Virus record (IMG/VR): IMGVR_UViG_2563366976_000006
Reading direction: 5' to 3' (one strand)
DNA: 38,548 bases
Source of the DNA: a virus
Lineage: Duplodnaviria > Heunggongvirae > Uroviricota > Caudoviricetes
Shown here piece by piece: positions 1,136-28,470 of this stretch; within the stretch, counting starts at the first letter, position 1; every line of letters begins with the position of its first letter. The notes under the pieces are model-generated. The model saw nothing but the letters and a program-made list of their open reading frames with translations. It ran no database searches and had not been told where the DNA came from. A program made the translations under genes and the position numbers.

Positions 1136-2812
1136 CTAAGCAACATGTAGTTCATCGTTGGCGGAAGTGGCTGCTTTGCGCTCCTGCTCAATAGCTAGAG
1201 ACTCTCTATATTCTTTCGCCTCTGCAAACATTGTCCAGTGGGCGTTGATGTTCATGTCTTCAATAACTGATTTGATTTCTTTTAAATTTACGTTAAAAAA
1301 CTCTTTTCGTGAGTTAATTTTATTGACCTGCTTTTCGTTGAAAACTTTATGCAGATGGTTTTCTAATGATGGTGCATCATCACTATAAATCATCGCATGA
1401 ACATCGAACGAAAAAGGAACACTAGCATCTCCGAGTTCACGAACACGATCAAGTGGTTCAAGGCGGCGTGTCATTCCAATTTTATATACATCTTCGCCAA
1501 ATGAACCAATATTACTAATGATATAGACGTGGCCTGATCTGGTTTGTTGAGCCATAGAAATAGCTCGTTGATTTTTAGCTTCTGCTTCTTCATATTTTAA
1601 CTGTAGTTCAGCTATTTTTTGCTCTAAAGCTAAGCGTTGTTCTTCATTTGCAAGCATAAGTTCTTTCGTTGCTTTATTTATAGCTTGCTGAATAGCTTTT
1701 TCTTCTTTTTCAGCTTCTTTTATCGCTTTTTCATATTCTCTACGAGCTCTTTCCTCTTCACGAAGCTGTTCTTTAATCCTTCTTTGCTCTTCTTTTTCTT
1801 CGAGCATAATTTCATTAACTGCTACACCCCATTTTAGCTCGTTGAGTCTTGCCTGAAGATAGATGTCACTTATTTTTGCGGACCTAAAGGCAGAGCCATT
1901 GTAATTTACTAGTTGAAATGCATCTTTTATTTCTTGGGAAAGTTTTCCAAAATTGTTGTGTTTGACTTTTGATAAAATACTGTCAACTCTTCCATTGAAG
2001 GCATCCAAAACAAAGTTTATGGAAGTATTACGCCTGTTTTGCTCAACATAATCACACGAAGCAGCTTTATTAGTTTTTATTAATGATTTGGTTAACTCTC
2101 TGGCTTTTTGTAATTCCTTGCCTGCATCTGTAAATTCATAATTTTCTGCCAGCTCATCAAGTACACTACGGTTAGGGATGATCCATTCATCACCATAACC
2201 TTCAATTTTATTTTTCATTGATTTTGCAACTGCTTCATATTTTTCTGCAAACTCTTTAGCTTCATATGCTGAACCAGCAATCTCCTTTGCTCTTTCTTCT
2301 GCATCAGAAATAATTTTTACTGCATTGTCATTAGCATTTGAGATTAGCTCATTTGCTTTATTATTAGCATTATCAAGACGTTCTTTGGCTTTCAGGCGTG
2401 CATCGCGAGCGTCTTTGGTGATTGCTATAGCTTCGCTATTAGCGTTGCTTATTGTCATCTGAGCTTGATAATTTGCTTCGTTTACTGTTTTAGCCGCCTT
2501 AATTTGGGCATCATCTATTTTTTGCTTGGCTATTGAGTCCGCATTTTTTATCTTATTCTCTGCATCCATTACTGCGCTGTGCAATTCTTCGTATTGCCAC
2601 AATGGTGCTGCTCGCCCTTCAAGCTCTGATAATTCTCGTACGGTCTGTGCTAGTTTTTCTTGATTTTCAATCAGTTGGTTAGAAAGGGCTATGTTGTTAG
2701 CTGTCAGGTTATCTATAGCCGCTTTGTGTTTTTTACTTTGTTTAAATAATATTACAGCTAGAACAGGGGCGAGAAATGCTAATAAGAGTATAACGATGGC
2801 AAATGAATTCAT
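1136..2812 (-). CDS. membrane-anchored coiled-coil protein with DUF4041-like middle and T5orf172/GIY-YIG-like C-terminal domain (moron)
   Basis: 558-aa ORF; N-terminal hydrophobic helix, long E/K/A-rich coiled coil, C-terminal segment VYIISNIGSFGEDVYKIGMT typical of T5orf172-type domains; AT-rich relative to neighbours; AAGGA SD upstream. Confidence 0.6.
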   Translation of the reverse strand: MNSFAIVILLLAFLAPVLAVILFKQSKKHKAAIDNLTANNIALSNQLIENQEKLAQTVRELSELEGRAAPLWQYEELHSAVMDAENKIKNADSIAKQKIDDAQIKAAKTVNEANYQAQMTISNANSEAIAITKDARDARLKAKERLDNANNKANELISNANDNAVKIISDAEERAKEIAGSAYEAKEFAEKYEAVAKSMKNKIEGYGDEWIIPNRSVLDELAENYEFTDAGKELQKARELTKSLIKTNKAASCDYVEQNRRNTSINFVLDAFNGRVDSILSKVKHNNFGKLSQEIKDAFQLVNYNGSAFRSAKISDIYLQARLNELKWGVAVNEIMLEEKEEQRRIKEQLREEERARREYEKAIKEAEKEEKAIQQAINKATKELMLANEEQRLALEQKIAELQLKYEEAEAKNQRAISMAQQTRSGHVYIISNIGSFGEDVYKIGMTRRLEPLDRVRELGDASVPFSFDVHAMIYSDDAPSLENHLHKVFNEKQVNKINSRKEFFNVNLKEIKSVIEDMNINAHWTMFAEAKEYRESLAIEQERKAATSANDELHVA

Positions 2813-9860: not shown

Positions 9861-10844
9861 ATGCTCGCTGCAATTGTTGCAGCGAGCATATCTGAGATGG
9901 ATATTATGCAGCTTGAAAAAAAATTATGTGAAAAATTCAACCTTACCCCTTTGAAGCTTTCTATCCTCTCATCCAAAGCTCCAAAAAAATATCGCGTATA
10001 TTATATACCCAAGAGAACTTCTGGTCTTAGGGCGATTGCTCAGCCGACTAAAGAGTTGAAGCAAATTCAACGTTTTTTGGTTTCGGAGTTGAAGCCTCTT
10101 TTGCCAATTCATTCATCAGCAATGGCTTACAGATGTGGCATAAGCATTAAGGATAATGCTGAACGTCACAAGAACAATCCATTTATATTAAAAATGGATT
10201 TTCAGAATTTTTTTAATAAAATTAAACCGGAAATTTTTTTTGATAAGTTCAAAAAAATGGATGTTCAACACAACGCCAGAGATGAAATACTTCTGCACAA
10301 TTTTTTGTTTTGGAAGCCAGGGCAAAAAAGAAGTATTACACATATATTGAGCGTAGGAGCACCGAGTTCTCCATTCATTAGTAATTTTGTCATGTTTGAT
10401 TTTGATTCAGCTATCAGTGAGTGGTGTGCTGATTTTGGTATTGTTTATACTCGTTATGCGGATGATATAACATTTTCAACCGCTAGAAAAAATATTTTAT
10501 TCAGTGTTCCTAAAATAGTTAAAAACATGCTTGCTGAGCACGCATCAGGTATTACCATTAATGAAGCCAAGACCATTTTTACATCTAAGGCTCACAATAG
10601 GCATGTTACAGGTGTAACTATTACTACTGATGGTGAATTATCTATAGGGCGAAAGAGAAAAAAATATCTTTTCTCTCTTGTTTTTAAATATAGCAATGGG
10701 AACTTGACAAGTGAAGAAATTTTATATGCTAAAGGACTGATGTCTTATTGCATGCATATTGAAAGAAATATAATAATAAGAATGAAAAATAAGTATGGTG
10801 CGGAAGTTATCAATAAATTTCTTAAGGAAGGTTGTGATGAATGA
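9861..10844 (+). CDS. retron-type reverse transcriptase
   Basis: 327-aa ORF; RVYYIPKRTSGLRAIAQPTKELK motif and YADD catalytic box; start may be 9861, 9897 or 9906. Confidence 0.85.
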   Translation: MLAAIVAASISEMDIMQLEKKLCEKFNLTPLKLSILSSKAPKKYRVYYIPKRTSGLRAIAQPTKELKQIQRFLVSELKPLLPIHSSAMAYRCGISIKDNAERHKNNPFILKMDFQNFFNKIKPEIFFDKFKKMDVQHNARDEILLHNFLFWKPGQKRSITHILSVGAPSSPFISNFVMFDFDSAISEWCADFGIVYTRYADDITFSTARKNILFSVPKIVKNMLAEHASGITINEAKTIFTSKAHNRHVTGVTITTDGELSIGRKRKKYLFSLVFKYSNGNLTSEEILYAKGLMSYCMHIERNIIIRMKNKYGAEVINKFLKEGCDE

Positions 10845-12450
10845 TTCTAAAAAAAGAGTGGATAATGTTTTTTCGGAGTTTATTGGTCTGATTAATGATG
10901 GCGTGCCTGAGGATAAATTAAAATATTCACCTGTATTGAATTTGCTAAATGAATCTTTAAATAAAGACAACTTATACCTTAAGAAAATATCAATTGTAGA
11001 CTTCAAAAGATTAAGGGATGTTATTGTAAATCTTGAAGATGATCTCACAGTTTTTGTTGCTGACAACGGCTATGGTAAAACAACTTTGCTTGATGCGATC
11101 GCAATTTCTTTAAGTTGGCTTCGTTCTAATATACAGAAAAAAGATAAACCTGGGTCGTATATAAGGGAAGTGGATATAAATAACTCAAAAGATGCCTTGT
11201 ATGCATCTATTGCTGCAACATTTAAAGTACAAGAGCTGAATACTAATGTTTTAATCACAAATGCAAAAGATGGTGTGTCTTTTAAACGCAGTAACGATTT
11301 ACAAGAAATTAAGCTGCTAGCAACAATGTACCGCTATGTTAATACGTTCTTAGATAATTCAAGTCTACCTGTGATGGCTTATTATTCAATTGTTAGGTCT
11401 GTCGTTGGTGGTGGTATTGATAATAGAAGAAGAAGCGGTAAGAATAAAGTTTCTTGGTCCAAATTTGATGTGTATGACGATTTCATGTTTGATAGAAATG
11501 ATTTTGGCGAATTTTTAAATTGGCTCATGTTTTTATCGAATAAATCCGCTCATGAGAATCCAGTGGTCACTGATAACCCAGAGTTACTCAGAAAGGAAAT
11601 AGAAAGTATCAATAACACAATTGAACAACTAAGTATTGTTTCTAACATCGATTTTAGTATTATTAATCAGCTAAAGAGTAGTCTTGAAGAGAAAAAAAAC
11701 CAATTAAATAAGTTTAGTAGTGAAGGGTTTTTAAGTTCATCTGTCTTATATAGGAATGTAATAAATGCTATATTGAGATTTTTGCCTGAATTCGAAAGCA
11801 TTAATCTGGTTTATAGTGAGACTGATGTTAAGCTTGTTCTTATCAAGAATGGTATTCAATTAGATGCGCAACAACTCTCACAAGGTGAGAAAACCATACT
11901 TACTCTGGTAGGTGATTTAGCTCGCCGACTTTCCCTTTTGAATCCAGAGCTACAAAATCCATTTGAAGGTCAAGGCATAGTATTAATTGATGAGGTTGAT
12001 TTGCACCTTCATCCAACTTGGCAGCAGAAAATTATAGAGCGGCTATTAACAACCTTTCCTAATGTTCAGTTTGTTCTTTCTACACACAGCCCTCAAGTCA
12101 TATCTACTGTTCCTGCCAGGAGCATAAGGATTTTAGAGGAGGTGGAAGATGAATTTGGTGATATTTCGATAAAAGCTGTTAGGCCCCGCTTTCAAACTAA
12201 AGGGGTGATGAATAGTGATGCATTACTTTATGGAATGGGAGCAGACCCTGCGCCTCCTGTAGAAGAAGTAAAATGGTTGGAAGAGTACAAAAAATTTATT
12301 GAATTGGATCAGTTTGATAGCGATTCAGCGCTTAAACTACGCCAGAATATAATAAGTCACTTTGGGGAAGATCATCCTTTAGTTGTAGAACTCGATCAGA
12401 TGACTTCACTCATGGAGTTTAAAAGAAAAATTAGAAATAAAAAACAATGA
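10837..12450 (+). CDS. retron effector ATPase (PtuA-like, ABC/AAA-type)
   Basis: Walker A DNGYGKTT, Walker B LIDEVDLHLH; start overlaps RT stop by 8 nt. Confidence 0.8.
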   Translation: MNDSKKRVDNVFSEFIGLINDGVPEDKLKYSPVLNLLNESLNKDNLYLKKISIVDFKRLRDVIVNLEDDLTVFVADNGYGKTTLLDAIAISLSWLRSNIQKKDKPGSYIREVDINNSKDALYASIAATFKVQELNTNVLITNAKDGVSFKRSNDLQEIKLLATMYRYVNTFLDNSSLPVMAYYSIVRSVVGGGIDNRRRSGKNKVSWSKFDVYDDFMFDRNDFGEFLNWLMFLSNKSAHENPVVTDNPELLRKEIESINNTIEQLSIVSNIDFSIINQLKSSLEEKKNQLNKFSSEGFLSSSVLYRNVINAILRFLPEFESINLVYSETDVKLVLIKNGIQLDAQQLSQGEKTILTLVGDLARRLSLLNPELQNPFEGQGIVLIDEVDLHLHPTWQQKIIERLLTTFPNVQFVLSTHSPQVISTVPARSIRILEEVEDEFGDISIKAVRPRFQTKGVMNSDALLYGMGADPAPPVEEVKWLEEYKKFIELDQFDSDSALKLRQNIISHFGEDHPLVVELDQMTSLMEFKRKIRNKKQ

Positions 12451-12462
12451 GGAGACTTGAGG

Positions 12463-13131
12463 ATGAAATTTCTTCGAAGGATATATCCTGGCCCTAACGT
12501 GCTAAGTAGTTATGATTTTAATACTCAAACTTGGGATGATGTATCATCATCTGACAAAAAAGATATTTGGGTAGATTTAGTTAAAATGCAAGGCAAAGTA
12601 TGCGCTTATTGTGAAAGGAAAATAAACCTAACAAAAGAGGGGGATAAGCATATTGAGCATTTCAAGCGAAAAGGTATTCATCGCGAATTAACGTTTAACT
12701 GGGAGAATCTGTTTGGTTCGTGTGGGGAAAAACAAAGATGCGGATTCTACAAAGACAAACAAGAATATAATGAGGGTGACCTGTTAAAAGCTGATGAAAT
12801 GGATCCTGAAGATTTTTTTGTTTTTATCTATAGTGGTGATGTTATTGTAAAACCTGAGATAAATGAACGAAATAAAGTAATAGCTGAGGTTACCCTGAGG
12901 GTATTCAATCTTAATCCCGAGAACGGTGGTGTTAAAGCCGAGAGAAGAAATGTCCTCGAGAAAGGCTTAGGCACTATAAAGGGGTATGTTAAGATTGCTC
13001 AAGACTTAATTGATAGTGGTGAGGATGCAGAAGAAGTTCGGCAATATGTTCGGGATGAGTATTATGAAAAAATTTCACAAATGGATTTTAAAACTGCAAG
13101 GAAACATGTTTTTGAAGCATTTCTACCTTGA
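12463..13131 (+). CDS. retron effector HNH endonuclease (PtuB-like)
   Basis: CAYCERK...HIEHF...C-x-x-C pattern; GGAG SD; 12 nt after ATPase stop. Confidence 0.75.
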   Translation: MKFLRRIYPGPNVLSSYDFNTQTWDDVSSSDKKDIWVDLVKMQGKVCAYCERKINLTKEGDKHIEHFKRKGIHRELTFNWENLFGSCGEKQRCGFYKDKQEYNEGDLLKADEMDPEDFFVFIYSGDVIVKPEINERNKVIAEVTLRVFNLNPENGGVKAERRNVLEKGLGTIKGYVKIAQDLIDSGEDAEEVRQYVRDEYYEKISQMDFKTARKHVFEAFLP

Positions 13132-15996: not shown

Positions 15997-16014
15997 TGTG
16001 TGGTTGTCGGTACA
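15997..16014. promoter_or_regulatory. late-promoter activator site TGT-N12-ACA (Ogr-type) upstream of O
   Basis: tgtgtggttgtcggtaca about 80 bp upstream of the O start in the P/O divergent region. Confidence 0.5.
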
Positions 16015-19421: not shown

Positions 19422-19637
19422 ATGACGCTTGAGCGAATCAGCGCCTTTATCACGTATTGCATCGCCGTCGTGCTGGCCTGGCTGGGCGATTTGTCCATCA
19501 AGGATGCCTCAACGCTGGGCGGCCTGATGATTGGTGTGCTGATGCTGGCTATCAACTGGTACTACAAACACAAAGCCTACCAGCTTCTGCGCGACGGGCA
19601 GATCTCGCGGGAGGACTATGAATCCATCAATCGTTAA
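19422..19637 (+). CDS. holin (two predicted TM helices; possible pinholin)
   Basis: 71-aa protein with two hydrophobic segments immediately upstream of a SAR-type lysozyme. Confidence 0.6.
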   Translation: MTLERISAFITYCIAVVLAWLGDLSIKDASTLGGLMIGVLMLAINWYYKHKAYQLLRDGQISREDYESINR

Positions 19638-20133
19638 ACGCTGCCTTGTCGGGGGCGTGCTGGCTATTGCTGCCACGCTGCCGGGTTTTCAGCAGCTTCA
19701 CACCTCCGTGGAGGGACTGAAACTGATTGCCGATTACGAAGGCTGTCGTCTGCAGCCGTATCAGTGCAGCGCGGGTGTCTGGACCGACGGCATTGGTAAT
19801 ACATCGGGCGTCATTCCCGGCAAAACAATCACGGAACGACAGGCAGCAGAAGGGCTGATCTCCAACGTGCTGCGTGTGGAGCGGGCACTGGAAAGGTGTG
19901 TGAAGCAACAGCCACCACAGAAGGTGTATGACGCTGCGGTGTCGTTTGCCTTCAACGTGGGAACGGGAAATGCCTGCAGTTCCACACTGGTGAAATTACT
20001 CAATCAGCGGCGCTGGGCGGATGCGTGCCGACAGTTGCCGCGCTGGGTTTATGTAAAAGGTGTTTTTAATCAGGGGCTGGATAACCGCCGTGCGCGGGAG
20101 ATGGCCTGGTGCCTTAAAGGAGCTGGACTATGA
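19618..20133 (+). CDS. endolysin, lysozyme family with N-terminal signal-anchor-release-like segment
   Basis: 171-aa ORF; N-terminal Gly/Ala-rich hydrophobic stretch; lysozyme-like core. Confidence 0.8.
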   Translation: MNPSIVKRCLVGGVLAIAATLPGFQQLHTSVEGLKLIADYEGCRLQPYQCSAGVWTDGIGNTSGVIPGKTITERQAAEGLISNVLRVERALERCVKQQPPQKVYDAAVSFAFNVGTGNACSSTLVKLLNQRRWADACRQLPRWVYVKGVFNQGLDNRRAREMAWCLKGAGL

Positions 20134-20558
20134 CACGTGCTCTGGCAGTAGTGGTGGCGCTGGCACTCGTTGCGCTGGGCTGGCAGTCGTGGCGGCTTAA
20201 CAGCGCCAGCCACATAATCGAAACGCAGCGCGCGGCGCTGAAAAGTAAAGCGCAGGAACTAACGAAGAAAAATAGCCAGCTGATCGGTCTGTCCATTCTG
20301 GCTGAAACCAACAACCGGGAGCAGGCGCGGCTCTATGCCGACGCAGAACAGACCAGCGCACTGCTGAGACAACGACAACACCGGATTGAGGAACTGAAAC
20401 GTGAGAACGAGGATTTACGCCGCTGGGCTGATACTCCTTTGCCTGCTGACATTATCCGGCTGCGGGAACGCCCCACGCTCACCGGAGGTGCAGCTTACCG
20501 TCAGTGGTTGTCCGCAAGTGACGCCGTGTCGGCTGGAGCAGGCAGCGCCGCGCACTAA
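20130..20558 (+). CDS. i-spanin (Rz/LysB-like)
   Basis: N-terminal TM, coiled-coil periplasmic domain. Confidence 0.7.
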   Translation: MTRALAVVVALALVALGWQSWRLNSASHIIETQRAALKSKAQELTKKNSQLIGLSILAETNNREQARLYADAEQTSALLRQRQHRIEELKRENEDLRRWADTPLPADIIRLRERPTLTGGAAYRQWLSASDAVSAGAGSAAH

Positions 20559-20691
20559 TGGTGATCTGAACGCGTTGCTGGATGAAACGGAGGCTGCCTG
20601 GGCGGTCTGTGCAGACAAAGTGGACATGATTATTGCGTGTCAGGAGCGAAACAGTGAACAAACCACAATCCCTGCGCCACGCCCTCAATAA
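20401..20691 (+). CDS. o-spanin lipoprotein (Rz1/LysC-like), overlapping Rz in +1 frame
   Basis: Signal peptide with lipobox LSGC, proline-rich; classic overlapped spanin arrangement. Confidence 0.6.
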   Translation: MRTRIYAAGLILLCLLTLSGCGNAPRSPEVQLTVSGCPQVTPCRLEQAAPRTNGDLNALLDETEAAWAVCADKVDMIIACQERNSEQTTIPAPRPQ

Positions 20692-21085
20692 AGCGGTGCC
20701 TTATGTCCGCAATAACCCGGACAAACTGCATCTGTTTGTGGATAACGGTTCGCTGGTTGCCACGGGGGCCAGCTCCATGTCGTGGGAGTACCGTTACACC
20801 CTGAACGCGGTGATTGAGGATTTCAGCGGCGACCAGAATCTGCTGATGGCCCCGGTTTTGCTGTGGCTGAGGGATAACCAGCCCGATGCCATCAATAACC
20901 CGGCGTTACGGGAAAAACTATTCACCTTTGAGGTGGATATTCTGCGCAACGATGTCTGTGATATCAGCCTGAACCTGCAACTGACGGAGCGTGTGCTGGT
21001 CAGCACTGACGGCAGTGTGTCGAGCGTTGAAGCTGTAGCAGAACCCGATGAACCTGAAGAAATGTGGACGGTGAAACGTGGCTGA
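20654..21085 (+). CDS. R: tail completion protein (P2 gpR family)
   Basis: GTG start with AGGAG SD; conserved position. Confidence 0.75.
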   Translation: MNKPQSLRHALNKAVPYVRNNPDKLHLFVDNGSLVATGASSMSWEYRYTLNAVIEDFSGDQNLLMAPVLLWLRDNQPDAINNPALREKLFTFEVDILRNDVCDISLNLQLTERVLVSTDGSVSSVEAVAEPDEPEEMWTVKRG

Positions 21086-21527
21086 ACTGCAGAAGGTGGA
21101 CGACTGGTTGAGTGCCTTGCTGGCGAATCTGGAACCAGCCACGAGAAGTCGCATGATGCGCCAGCTGGCGCAGGAACTGCGCCGGACACAACAGAAGAAC
21201 ATCAAGATGCAGCGCAATCCAGATGGCAGTAGTTATGAACCGCGACGGGTAACAGCACGCAGTAAAAAGGGGCGTATCAAACGTCAGATGTTTGCAAAGC
21301 TGCGCACCACAAAATATCTGAAAACTGCCGCCAGCGCCGATTCTGCCAGCGTGCAGTTTGAAGGTAAGGTGCAGCGCATTGCCCGCGTTCATCACTACGG
21401 CCTGCGCGATCGTGTCAGTCGTAAGGGACCGGAGGTCCGTTACGCAGAGCGTCGCCTGCTGGGTGTAAATGATGATGTTGAAGCAAATATTCGTGATATT
21501 TTGCTACGTTGGCTAAGCCAATATTAA
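21078..21527 (+). CDS. S: tail completion/virion morphogenesis protein (P2 gpS family)
   Basis: 149-aa ORF overlapping R end. Confidence 0.8.
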   Translation: MAELQKVDDWLSALLANLEPATRSRMMRQLAQELRRTQQKNIKMQRNPDGSSYEPRRVTARSKKGRIKRQMFAKLRTTKYLKTAASADSASVQFEGKVQRIARVHHYGLRDRVSRKGPEVRYAERRLLGVNDDVEANIRDILLRWLSQY

Positions 21528-21528
21528 T

Positions 21529-22224
21529 TCATGTCAAATATTGATAACTTTTATCAATTTCAAGTTTGTGAAATTTGGTTATCTTTGAATCAATGTATAA
21601 ATCTATGAACATTGCTATCCCTATCATAAATATAAATAGAATGCTTAAATAAATAATGGGGGTGGCAATCATAATTGTAAATTTGTTCTTGTCTGTCGTT
21701 TTTGCTAACTCTTCTTTCTTTTCAGGAATTAGCAAGTAGCTACAAATGAAATCTTTTGTGGCTTGTTGGATTGAAGTGATCTTATCAAGCTGTGACTTGT
21801 CAACACATACATCTGGTGTGATATTCCATTCAGGTGTGTATGGTATGTTTTGTGCGTGTTCTGGTTTCATCCAAAAGGAATCTTTTGTTTCTCTATGTGT
21901 GATTTCAACCCAATTTACGGGTTCTTTGGCGATGAAATAGGTAAATTTATAAAAACAAAGTGCTGAGGTCATAATGACTGCAATTCCAAATGAGACGATA
22001 AATATTTTATGTTTTTTAATATGGGGTTTTGTGCTTAACTTATATTTGCAAAGACTAAGTCTAATAATTGGCTTTGATATTCCAATCTTTGATATCAAAA
22101 AGTCTTCTTCTGGATAGGATGTGTTTAACCATGACCAAAAAGCCGAGATGCCACCTATAAGCCATTTAAATATAAGACCACCAATGGCCGTAGCTAAAAA
22201 TGTATTTATTTTATCGATTTCCAT
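21529..22224 (-). CDS. AT-rich moron: predicted 3-TM membrane protein of unknown function, antisense to late operon
   Basis: 231-aa ORF on opposite strand between S and V; strongly AT-rich DNA; hydrophobic helices at N-terminus, middle and C-terminus. Confidence 0.6.
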   Translation of the reverse strand: MEIDKINTFLATAIGGLIFKWLIGGISAFWSWLNTSYPEEDFLISKIGISKPIIRLSLCKYKLSTKPHIKKHKIFIVSFGIAVIMTSALCFYKFTYFIAKEPVNWVEITHRETKDSFWMKPEHAQNIPYTPEWNITPDVCVDKSQLDKITSIQQATKDFICSYLLIPEKKEELAKTTDKNKFTIMIATPIIYLSILFIFMIGIAMFIDLYIDSKITKFHKLEIDKSYQYLT

Positions 22225-22260
22225 ATAGATCCCCTTTTGGTTGAGCTATCTGGGATTATA

Positions 22261-22278
22261 TGTATGAGAGACAGAACA
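22261..22278. promoter_or_regulatory. late-promoter activator site TGT-N12-ACA upstream of V
   Basis: tgtatgagagacagaaca about 50 bp upstream of V start. Confidence 0.5.
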
Positions 22279-22324
22279 ATGAAGCGAGGTTCGTTAAAAT
22301 AGGAATCACGGGCATTCTTTCTTC

Positions 22325-22902
22325 ATGAACGCACAATTAACCGAAATCATGCGCCTTATCACCAACCTGATCCGCACTGGTGTAGTCACCGAAGTGGACC
22401 GGGAAAACTGGCTTTGCCGGGTGAAAACGGGCGACCTTGAAACCAACTGGATTAACTGGCTGACGCTGCGCGCGGGTAATGCCGCACATGGTGGAAACCA
22501 TCGGAAGGTGAGCAGGTGGTGCTGCTGAGTCTGGGAGGCAATCTGGAAACCGCCTTTGCGTTGCCCGCTGTCTATTCGAATCAGTTCGCGCCACCTTCGA
22601 CGTCGGCGGACGCCTGCGTGACAGAACATCCTGACGGTGGCTGGTTTGAATACGAACCCGCCACCGGGCGCTGGTATGTCAGGGGCATCAAATCCATGGT
22701 CATTGAGGCTGCCGACAACATCACCCTGAAAACCAGTGAGTTTGTGCTGGAGGCTGACCGCACGCGTATTAACAGCGAAGTAGTGATCAATGGTGGTGTT
22801 ACCCAGGGCGGCGGTGCAATGAGTTCTAACGGAATTGTGGTTGATGCACATCAGCATACTGGCGTCCTGAAAGGCGGCGACACAACCGGAGGCCCGGTAT
22901 GA
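22325..22902 (+). pseudogene. V: baseplate spike gene (P2 gpV family) interrupted by a frameshift near 22480-22490
   Basis: N-terminal 52 codons in one frame (22325 onward) and the rest in another (ending 22902); the two ORFs together cover a normal-length V. Confidence 0.65.
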
Positions 22903-28452: not shown

Positions 28453-28470
28453 TGTGTGAATAACGGTACA
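28453..28470. promoter_or_regulatory. late-promoter activator site TGT-N12-ACA upstream of FI
   Basis: tgtgtgaataacggtaca about 80 bp upstream of FI; resembles the site upstream of O. Confidence 0.5.

Follow-up and report, generated by a model that had tools for sequence, protein, structure and literature searches.

Introduction

The late genes of bacteriophage P2 are transcribed from four Ogr-dependent promoters with the consensus TGT-N12-ACA, of which P_O drives the genes from O to S and P_V those from V to G (PMC3931495). In the P2 RefSeq record, the boundary between these two operons is annotated with the O-operon terminator after S, the antisense gene of Orf30, a P_V activator site and the V transcription start, and as this start is placed at the V ATG itself, a leaderless or near-leaderless V mRNA is implied. 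The 'orf30 region' is one of three loci of P2-like phages with horizontally acquired genes, and Orf30 is regarded as one such acquisition (PMC3091744); R18C is an example for this region (PMC6823313). A survey of P2 hotspots names old/tin, Z/fun and tail-cI, and S/V is not listed (bioRxiv 10.1101/2024.10.15.618418). Here we describe the S/V position of IMG/VR virus record IMGVR_UViG_2563366976_000006, a stretch of 38,548 nucleotides (nt) that is called the window below. In it, an open reading frame (ORF) of 231 amino acids (aa) on the minus strand encodes a predicted membrane protein of the DUF6216 family, and the evidence is best accounted for by a moron cassette that carries a single gene of that family.

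It is already known that the DUF6216 family is catalogued, that the S/V slot is variable and that P2-like phages can carry morons. New here are the link of DUF6216 to the S/V slot across three deep branches, the retention of the gene in prophage remnants, the defence-type character of the slot and the family member in BL21(DE3).

A conserved DUF6216 gene at the S/V junction

The protein matches Pfam DUF6216 (PF19723) with 44.0 bits against a gathering cutoff of 27.3 (E = 2e-11), the match spanning residues 40-203 and profile positions 94-251 of 270, and the identical RefSeq protein, WP_001554842.1, is named 'DUF6216 family protein'. Among 5.8 billion proteins we found 25 relatives, nearly all of them full-length and exactly 231 aa, with 45-65% identity, from Enterobacteriaceae of the genera Kosakonia, Raoultella, Enterobacter, Tatumella, Kluyvera and Dryocola. 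When 1.84 billion cluster representatives were scanned exhaustively with HMMER, just 31 matched at E <= 1e-3, almost all of 225-243 aa, with distant matches in Pantoea, Dickeya, Serratia, Pectobacterium, Lonsdalea and Erwinia. Comparison of eight alleles gave a saturated synonymous divergence (dS > 1.4) and a ratio of nonsynonymous to synonymous substitution (dN/dS) of 0.07-0.13, with 0.22 for the closest pair, and a GAAGGA or GAGGGA Shine-Dalgarno sequence stands at equivalent spacing in all eight. Because of the full-length homologues, the dN/dS of about 0.1 and the conserved Shine-Dalgarno sequence, this is not a chance ORF but a real gene under purifying selection. A decayed fragment of a known gene, a possibility that the earlier note had raised against its own account, was rejected, since purifying selection and the full length kept in all relatives speak otherwise.

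The earlier note had described an ORF on the strand opposite to its neighbours and far richer in AT; both statements hold, and the ORF has exactly the position given there. The guanine-cytosine (GC) content of the ORF is 31.9% and alike at all three codon positions, compared with 53% for gpS; along the DNA it is 0.31-0.36 over ~21450-22350 as against 0.54-0.62 on both sides, the flanks being at ~55% overall. The features of the junction are as follows.

21529..22224, minus strand: coding sequence of the DUF6216 family protein (the cargo gene), ORF of 231 aa, ATG start, TGA stop
22230..22236, minus strand: Shine-Dalgarno sequence AAGGGGA, 5 nt 5' of the cargo ATG
21078..21527, plus strand: gpS (tail completion / virion morphogenesis), Pfam Phage_tail_S, E = 1e-42; last P_O gene
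22325..22902, plus strand: gpV (baseplate spike), first P_V gene; split ORFs, frameshifted
21490..22324, no strand: AT-rich exchangeable cassette with an approximate left boundary; it takes in the last ~10 S codons and the antisense cargo gene, and continues with a P_V region of its own as far as the V start codon

An exchangeable cassette between two late operons

The cargo gene occupies the variable S/V slot of a P2-like E. coli prophage integrated beside ybjL. Its upstream neighbours gpR and gpS were identified by the Pfam families P2_Phage_GpR and Phage_tail_S, and gpV lies downstream. The genes for gpS and the cargo are convergent, with stop codons 1 nt apart, and separate genes for holin, endolysin, LysB and LysC lie at 19422-20691. 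Given the operon structure and annotation of P2, the cargo gene stands at the junction of two late operons and not inside one. Thus, the placement at the P2 orf30 position proposed in the earlier note is borne out by the P2 record, while its picture of an interruption within a uniform late operon has to give way to that of a boundary between the P_O and P_V operons.

In the 47 closest phage records both flanks match and the insert does not; the span is 1070 bp and the S-V spacer 68 bp. The slot was also empty in most of a rank-spread sample of E. coli matches. The C-terminus of S reads RDILLRWLSQY* in the window and RDMILQWLAGG* in empty-site phages, and the divergence runs on to the V ATG. 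At one locus (L008) the cassette is 63% identical while the flanks are 97-100% identical (R 97%, W 100%), with S, the end of which belongs to the cassette, at 88%, and in two E. coli strains (L037 and L038) a cassette of 99% identity sits inside flanks of 95% identity. This mismatch between cassette and backbone, found in both directions, shows that exchange of the cassette is uncoupled from the backbone. The feature therefore sits between genes that are adjacent in close relatives and has a distinct composition, as does a moron, an extra prophage gene in the sense of Hendrix and colleagues, and the moron reading of the earlier note is upheld by the absence of the cassette from the closest phages, its foreign composition, its antisense orientation and the variable region in which it lies.

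The prophage of the window lineage is probably defective, because gpV is frameshifted: alignment to FORC_081 and CP019275 shows a 1-bp deletion in a C-run, with CC at 22482-22483 as compared to CCC in intact copies. RefSeq labels V 'frameshifted' in two independent assemblies, N10 (CSF) and 23CRST038 (Ecuador). The cargo genes of this probably defective prophage are intact.

The family is tied to the slot across three deep branches

Of 5426 complete E. coli genomes, 5 have the exact window cassette, in each case between S and V. About 1050 genomes have a window-type S/V flank, and P2-like prophages occur in about a fifth of complete E. coli genomes. A profile search with a narrow alignment detected relatives in 4 of 185,579 species-representative genomes. 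Alleles of the window type (A-type), about 60% identical, lie antisense in the S/V slot of P2-like prophages of E. coli, two Enterobacteriaceae and Tatumella, where the flanking structural proteins are 80-100% identical. A second branch (B-type) consists of proteins of 264-268 aa that are 24% identical to the window protein, share its W...C...C signature and score above the Pfam threshold. It occupies the S/V slot of a defective P2-like prophage in E. coli B, BL21(DE3) and C43(DE3), is present in 111 of the 5426 genomes overall, and has relatives in Citrobacter, Salmonella, Klebsiella and Serratia. The third deep branch is again antisense in the S/V slot, in a P2-like prophage of Dickeya oryzae. 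DUF6216 is thus tied to the S/V slot across three deep branches.

A distant member of 25% identity (P0053; L024, 7199-8705) lies outside a prophage, between a Fic-like gene and mgtC. Its gene is divergent to that of the 197-aa Fic-like protein and near rpoD/mug. A B-type remnant of Serratia rubidaea shares this neighbourhood of the chromosome, which suggests that P2 has a second region of attachment.

The gene is kept intact in decayed prophages

Intact DUF6216 ORFs were found in at least seven independently decayed P2 remnants whose structural genes are gone. The gene orders are given below.

Enterobacter: ybjL, GIY-YIG, DUF6216, ars operon
L015: ybjL, ogr, DUF6216, portal fragments, GmrSD
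Kosakonia: gpV fragment, DUF6216, insertion sequence (IS); a HEPN_Apea gene lies ~5 kb off
Raoultella: gpD fragment, DUF6216, IS, HEPN, GmrSD
Serratia rubidaea: ogr, DUF6216, S
L043, Enterobacterales: ybjL, GIY-YIG, DUF6216, cI, AAA ATPase
Klebsiella huaxiensis: ybjL, reverse transcriptase (RT), DUF6216, integrase fragment

In four of these remnants, genes of a recognisable defence type (GmrSD, HEPN, an RT) have been kept as well. The retention in remnants, together with the intact cargo beside a frameshifted gpV in the window, argues for a benefit to the host that needs no phage partners. In two of the loci, the protein encoded between ybjL and DUF6216 is a GIY_YIG_2 protein of ~200 aa (L003 5060-5662 in Enterobacter, with an A-type gene, and L043 4836-5435, with a B-type gene).

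Predicted architecture of the protein

Kyte-Doolittle analysis of the 231-aa protein gave three hydrophobic segments, at ~8-32, ~74-99 and ~183-207, and three such segments are present in all three DUF6216 branches. The loop between the first two is 41 aa long and basic (9 K/R and 3 D/E), and the 83-aa region between the second and third is soluble and slightly acidic. Three hydrophobic helices had been noticed in the earlier note, and these stand; its soluble region of ~90 aa exists solely between helices 2 and 3, as helices 1 and 2 are only ~40 aa apart. An AlphaFold2 model based on 22 homologues (mean predicted local distance difference test score, pLDDT, 82.8) agrees with the hydropathy layout: residues 3-33, 70-100 and 167-230 form long helices, and a small domain of three strands and several helices lies at 106-165. 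Under the positive-inside rule the first loop would be cytoplasmic (9 K/R in A-type and 7 in B-type proteins), and the short N-terminus and the 83-90-aa domain would be periplasmic. The protein is therefore predicted to cross the inner membrane three times with its N-terminus out and C-terminus in, and its predicted parts are listed here.

~8-32: transmembrane segment 1 (TM1)
33-73: cytoplasmic loop
~74-99: TM2
100-182: periplasmic domain
~183-207: TM3
C-terminal tail, ending in the conserved motif KSYQYLT

In a comparison of 38 sequences that reaches down to ~15% identity, the sole family-wide invariant residues are A124, W133, C140 and C161, and all four fall inside the predicted periplasmic domain, where the cysteine pair C140/C161 is compatible with a disulfide. 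In the A and B clades alike, the N-terminus with TM1, the first loop and the C-terminal tail are most conserved, and TM2 and the periplasmic domain are most variable; six of six recent amino-acid changes among near-identical copies are at residues 89-170. Taken from the sequence, these features fit an envelope-acting protein.

Searches for a function were negative, in line with the earlier note, which could assign none; neither homology nor fold searches gave one, and what they add is the membership in DUF6216. In PADLOC (PADLOC-DB 2.0), no family matched the window protein at E <= 1 and none matched its BL21 homologue. The window protein had no match in PHROGs or NCBIfam, the full-length model had none in BFVD at E <= 1e-3, and fold searches with the periplasmic domain gave no recognisable fold. 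Hence the library and fold searches turned up no relative of known function in sequence or fold, and no link of either kind to a characterised superinfection-exclusion family. Lysis families (holin, antiholin, spanin) were not matched in PHROGs or Pfam, and the gene is on the strand opposite to those for lysis and tail. The literature held no matches to the accessions of DUF6216 proteins or to PF19723.

Other cargo of the slot and of the prophage

In other E. coli strains (L031-L036 and L002), each S/V slot holds one gene, mostly antisense and always of 32-37% GC. The cargos encoded there are listed below.

FRG-domain protein: PADLOC PDC-S15, E = 8e-32
DUF2971 protein: PADLOC PDC-S31, E = 3e-24
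TIR-domain protein: weak PDC-S66/SpbK match
DUF5677 protein
At least four further unannotated proteins

The only membrane proteins among the S/V cargos are DUF6216 and P2 Orf30. The window has two other AT-rich islands, and both carry cargo of defence type. PD-Lambda-1 lies in the int-cI slot (1136-2812, minus strand, 558 aa, PADLOC E = 2e-120) and has DUF4041 and T5orf172/MUG113 domains. A type I-A retron lies at the tin/old hotspot (9861-13131, plus strand), between a DinI-like gene and the portal gene, and comprises an RT (E = 1.5e-131), a PtuA-like ATPase and a PtuB/HNH nuclease. By analogy with these neighbours, the slot and the prophage point to a role in defence for the DUF6216 cargo.

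A sister prophage in E. coli FORC_081 (L001 8240-10890) carries an identical DUF6216 cassette and, at tin/old, a DEAD/DEAH helicase with a 209-aa hypothetical protein and no retron. The same S/V cassette thus occurs with different tin/old cargo, from which it follows that the hotspots shuffle independently. The FORC_081 prophage also has IS26 in its tail-fibre/invertase region.

A fixed P_V dyad and a candidate promoter that overlaps it

Two expression signals were located between the cargo gene and V.

22261..22278, plus strand: TGT-N12-ACA dyad TGTATGAGAGACAGAACA, an Ogr-type P_V activator site that ends 46 nt before the V ATG
22255..22283, minus strand: candidate sigma-70 promoter of the cargo gene, with a -35 hexamer TTCATT at 22283-22278, a 17-nt spacer and a -10 hexamer TATAAT at 22260-22255

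A TGT-N12-ACA dyad is found 45-48 nt 5' of V in 10 of 10 slot variants, which comprise nine unrelated cassettes and the empty site, and the rest of the spacer around it is not conserved among them. As such, the motif shows no enrichment across the window (11 matches vs 9.85 expected), so it is the fixed position that makes the case for the P_V dyad. Since the position is fixed within unrelated cassettes, each cassette brings its own P_V element. Elsewhere in the window, dyads lie at 15997-16014, 78 nt 5' of O and consistent with the P_P/P_O late promoters, and at 28453-28470, 76 nt 5' of FI and consistent with the P_F late promoter; their spacing differs from the 46 nt at V.

The hexamers of the candidate cargo promoter bracket the P_V dyad exactly, and its spacer coincides with the dyad. 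TTCATTGT is kept in seven of the eight alleles compared, and the -10 hexamer is strong in just three or four of the eight. The hexamers are missing from empty-site phages and thus travel with the cassette. At the junction of S and the cargo gene we found no convincing terminator and no significant terminator-like fold, and no Rfam family matched within 21000-22900.

Discussion

We tentatively favour the explanation that the cargo gene encodes an inner-membrane protein which is expressed in the lysogen and blocks superinfecting phages via its variable periplasmic domain. A resident or even defective prophage would express the DUF6216 cargo from the cargo's own promoter, and the protein would act alone at the envelope and protect the lysogen from other phages. 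In such superinfection exclusion, the periplasmic domain may engage the incoming genome-delivery machinery or its host inner-membrane partner, whereby entry of the DNA would be blocked. During late development the cargo would be switched off, since its promoter, which overlaps P_V, would be covered by Ogr and RNA polymerase bound there, and unterminated P_O transcripts would read antisense through the cargo gene; mutual exclusion of the two promoters and antisense transcription would together confine expression to the lysogenic state. We infer lysogen expression, anti-phage activity, the block of DNA entry and the regulatory coupling from the features described above. Exclusion is favoured because the protein appears to act on its own, is kept where no partner accompanies it, and has a variable, recently changing domain that would be exposed where phage genomes enter. 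An envelope location, which an exclusion protein encoded by a prophage should have, is predicted from the TM segments, the charge distribution and the AlphaFold2 helices.

Several points weigh against this explanation. The case for defence is one of guilt by association, in which the PDC families are only candidates and several cargos of the slot are unannotated. Neither the 50,697 phage records nor the 72,556 plasmids searched (DNA and tblastn) contained a relative of the window protein. The topology and the disulfide are predictions. The cargo promoter is likewise putative, its -10 hexamer being degenerate in several alleles, and a standard consensus promoter scan reported none upstream of the cargo gene; the scan was silent on the candidate because its -35 hexamer matches at 3 of 6 positions. 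Finally, the best-conserved parts of the protein are predicted to be cytoplasmic, and the key interaction could equally be intracellular, in which case an abortive-infection effector or a role outside defence would fit as well.

The first alternative is a single-gene defence by abortive infection or a membrane effector, in which the protein would sense an envelope perturbation or a phage product during infection and then permeabilise or depolarise the inner membrane, so that the infected cell dies or is arrested ahead of progeny production. The defence-type slot, the remnants that keep the gene and the further defence cargo of the prophage fit this equally, and a conserved TM1, cytoplasmic loop and C-terminal motif would suit a module for effector action or oligomerisation that is combined with a variable sensor. 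In its favour, too, the AlphaFold2 model has a long continuous helix at 167-230 and a helical bundle. However, no partner or antitoxin is consistently adjacent, yet the gene is stable alone in remnants, and a constitutively dangerous pore-former should be harder to keep; nor does PADLOC reveal similarity to known membrane defence effectors, and the changed and variable residues are periplasmic or in TM2, as surface recognition at phage entry would have it. We therefore consider such an effector rather unlikely.

Lysogenic conversion unrelated to phages would also account for a gene that outlives its prophage, for instance through tolerance to a colicin, a tailocin, a contact-dependent toxin or envelope stress, or through altered transport or colonisation. 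Retention in remnants and near-fixation in Enterobacter cloacae-type genomes (79 index blocks) show that there is a benefit and not which one it is. P0053 lies in an ordinary chromosomal neighbourhood, and the periplasmic domain has no recognisable fold that would tie it to phages. Against this stand the strong tie to a P2-like slot that carries defence-candidate genes elsewhere, the four remnants that also keep GmrSD, HEPN or RT genes, and a rapid turnover of alleles with a patchy distribution (5 and 111 of 5426), which is typical of arms-race cargo. A role of this kind appears unlikely to us.

It is improbable that the protein serves the phage's own cycle, for instance by stopping progeny from wasteful injection into cells already infected or lysing, tuning the timing of lysis or aiding the entry or exit of its own genome. 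The gene does adjoin V and the genes for lysis and tail completion, there is an overlap between its putative promoter and the activator site of late P_V, and P2 Orf30 has a matching 3-TM architecture in the same slot. Nevertheless, Orf30 is nonessential and most close relatives are viable with an empty slot, the ORF is conserved in remnants that are unable to make virions, and an antisense gene without a holin, antiholin or spanin match in PHROGs would have to work under converging late transcription. A non-functional or selfish passenger, dragged along by selection on V expression as each cassette carries an essential P_V element, is very improbable in view of the dN/dS of ~0.1 at saturated dS, the 231-aa length kept across genera, the conserved Shine-Dalgarno sequence, the four residues that stay invariant down to 16% identity and the intact ORF where V and P_V are gone.

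Returning to superinfection exclusion, a broader proposal can be built on it, one that we regard as possible and on the whole doubtful: DUF6216, perhaps with Orf30-like 3-TM proteins, would form a new single-gene family of envelope anti-phage proteins with an unseen periplasmic fold, S/V would be an under-recognised hotspot for single-gene defence, and the cargo would be ON in the lysogen and OFF late via the overlap with P_V, further restrained by H-NS. If DUF6216 proteins do exclude phages, they would add a single-gene immunity at the level of the envelope, unlike the nucleic-acid-targeting systems that dominate the catalogues, and the defence hotspots of P2-like prophages would include the S/V junction alongside old/tin and Z/fun. 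The fixed P_V dyad in unrelated cassettes indicates a cargo exchange that preserves an essential promoter and suggests that cargo expression has a simple switch built in. With a family member in both BL21(DE3) and E. coli B, the question is directly testable there, and the answer could have a bearing on what is concluded from phage-sensitivity results obtained in B strains. If the role proves to be unrelated to phages, DUF6216 would still be a conserved, domesticated membrane protein of prophage origin.

Comparison with known systems

HK97 gp15, T4 Imm and P22 SieA are superinfection-exclusion proteins of the inner membrane. Like them, the DUF6216 protein is a small moron-type membrane protein of a phage or prophage that would act alone, and the entry block proposed for it is alike. 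It differs from them in that PHROGs and BFVD show no similarity of sequence or structure, and the parallel is thus a functional analogy only. For defence hotspots of P2-like phages, bioRxiv 10.1101/2024.10.15.618418 cites Rousset et al. (2022). With these hotspots and the P2 exclusion morons old, tin and Z/fun the cargo shares its nature as AT-rich accessory DNA at a fixed slot between conserved genes; in contrast to those hotspots, the S/V slot holds single genes only, and DUF6216 is a membrane protein without an enzymatic domain.

P2 Orf30 (NP_046770.1, 261 aa) is comparable in position, as it lies antisense in the same slot and is of similar size, and in architecture, with a TM segment, a basic loop, a second TM segment, a domain of ~90 aa with two cysteines, a third TM segment and a basic tail. 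It is annotated as nonessential in the P2 record. In sequence, homology is not claimed: hhalign gave a probability of 8-21% in three runs, and BLASTP against the B-type gave E = 0.04. A Pfam search with Orf30 found no match, the invariant tryptophan is unaligned, and the cysteines are spaced 17 residues apart as compared to 21.

A further counterpart is the BL21 protein WP_000115390.1 (268 aa, DUF6216). The window branch is the rarer of the two (5 vs 111 of 5426 complete E. coli genomes), and its protein is shorter, with 231 aa compared to 264-268 aa, as it lacks extensions of ~20 aa at the N- and C-termini. The two proteins are 24% identical and share the 3-TM architecture and the W...C...C signature. 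In either case the gene is antisense in the S/V slot, the P2-like prophage is integrated at ybjL, and its tin/old hotspot is occupied by a retron.

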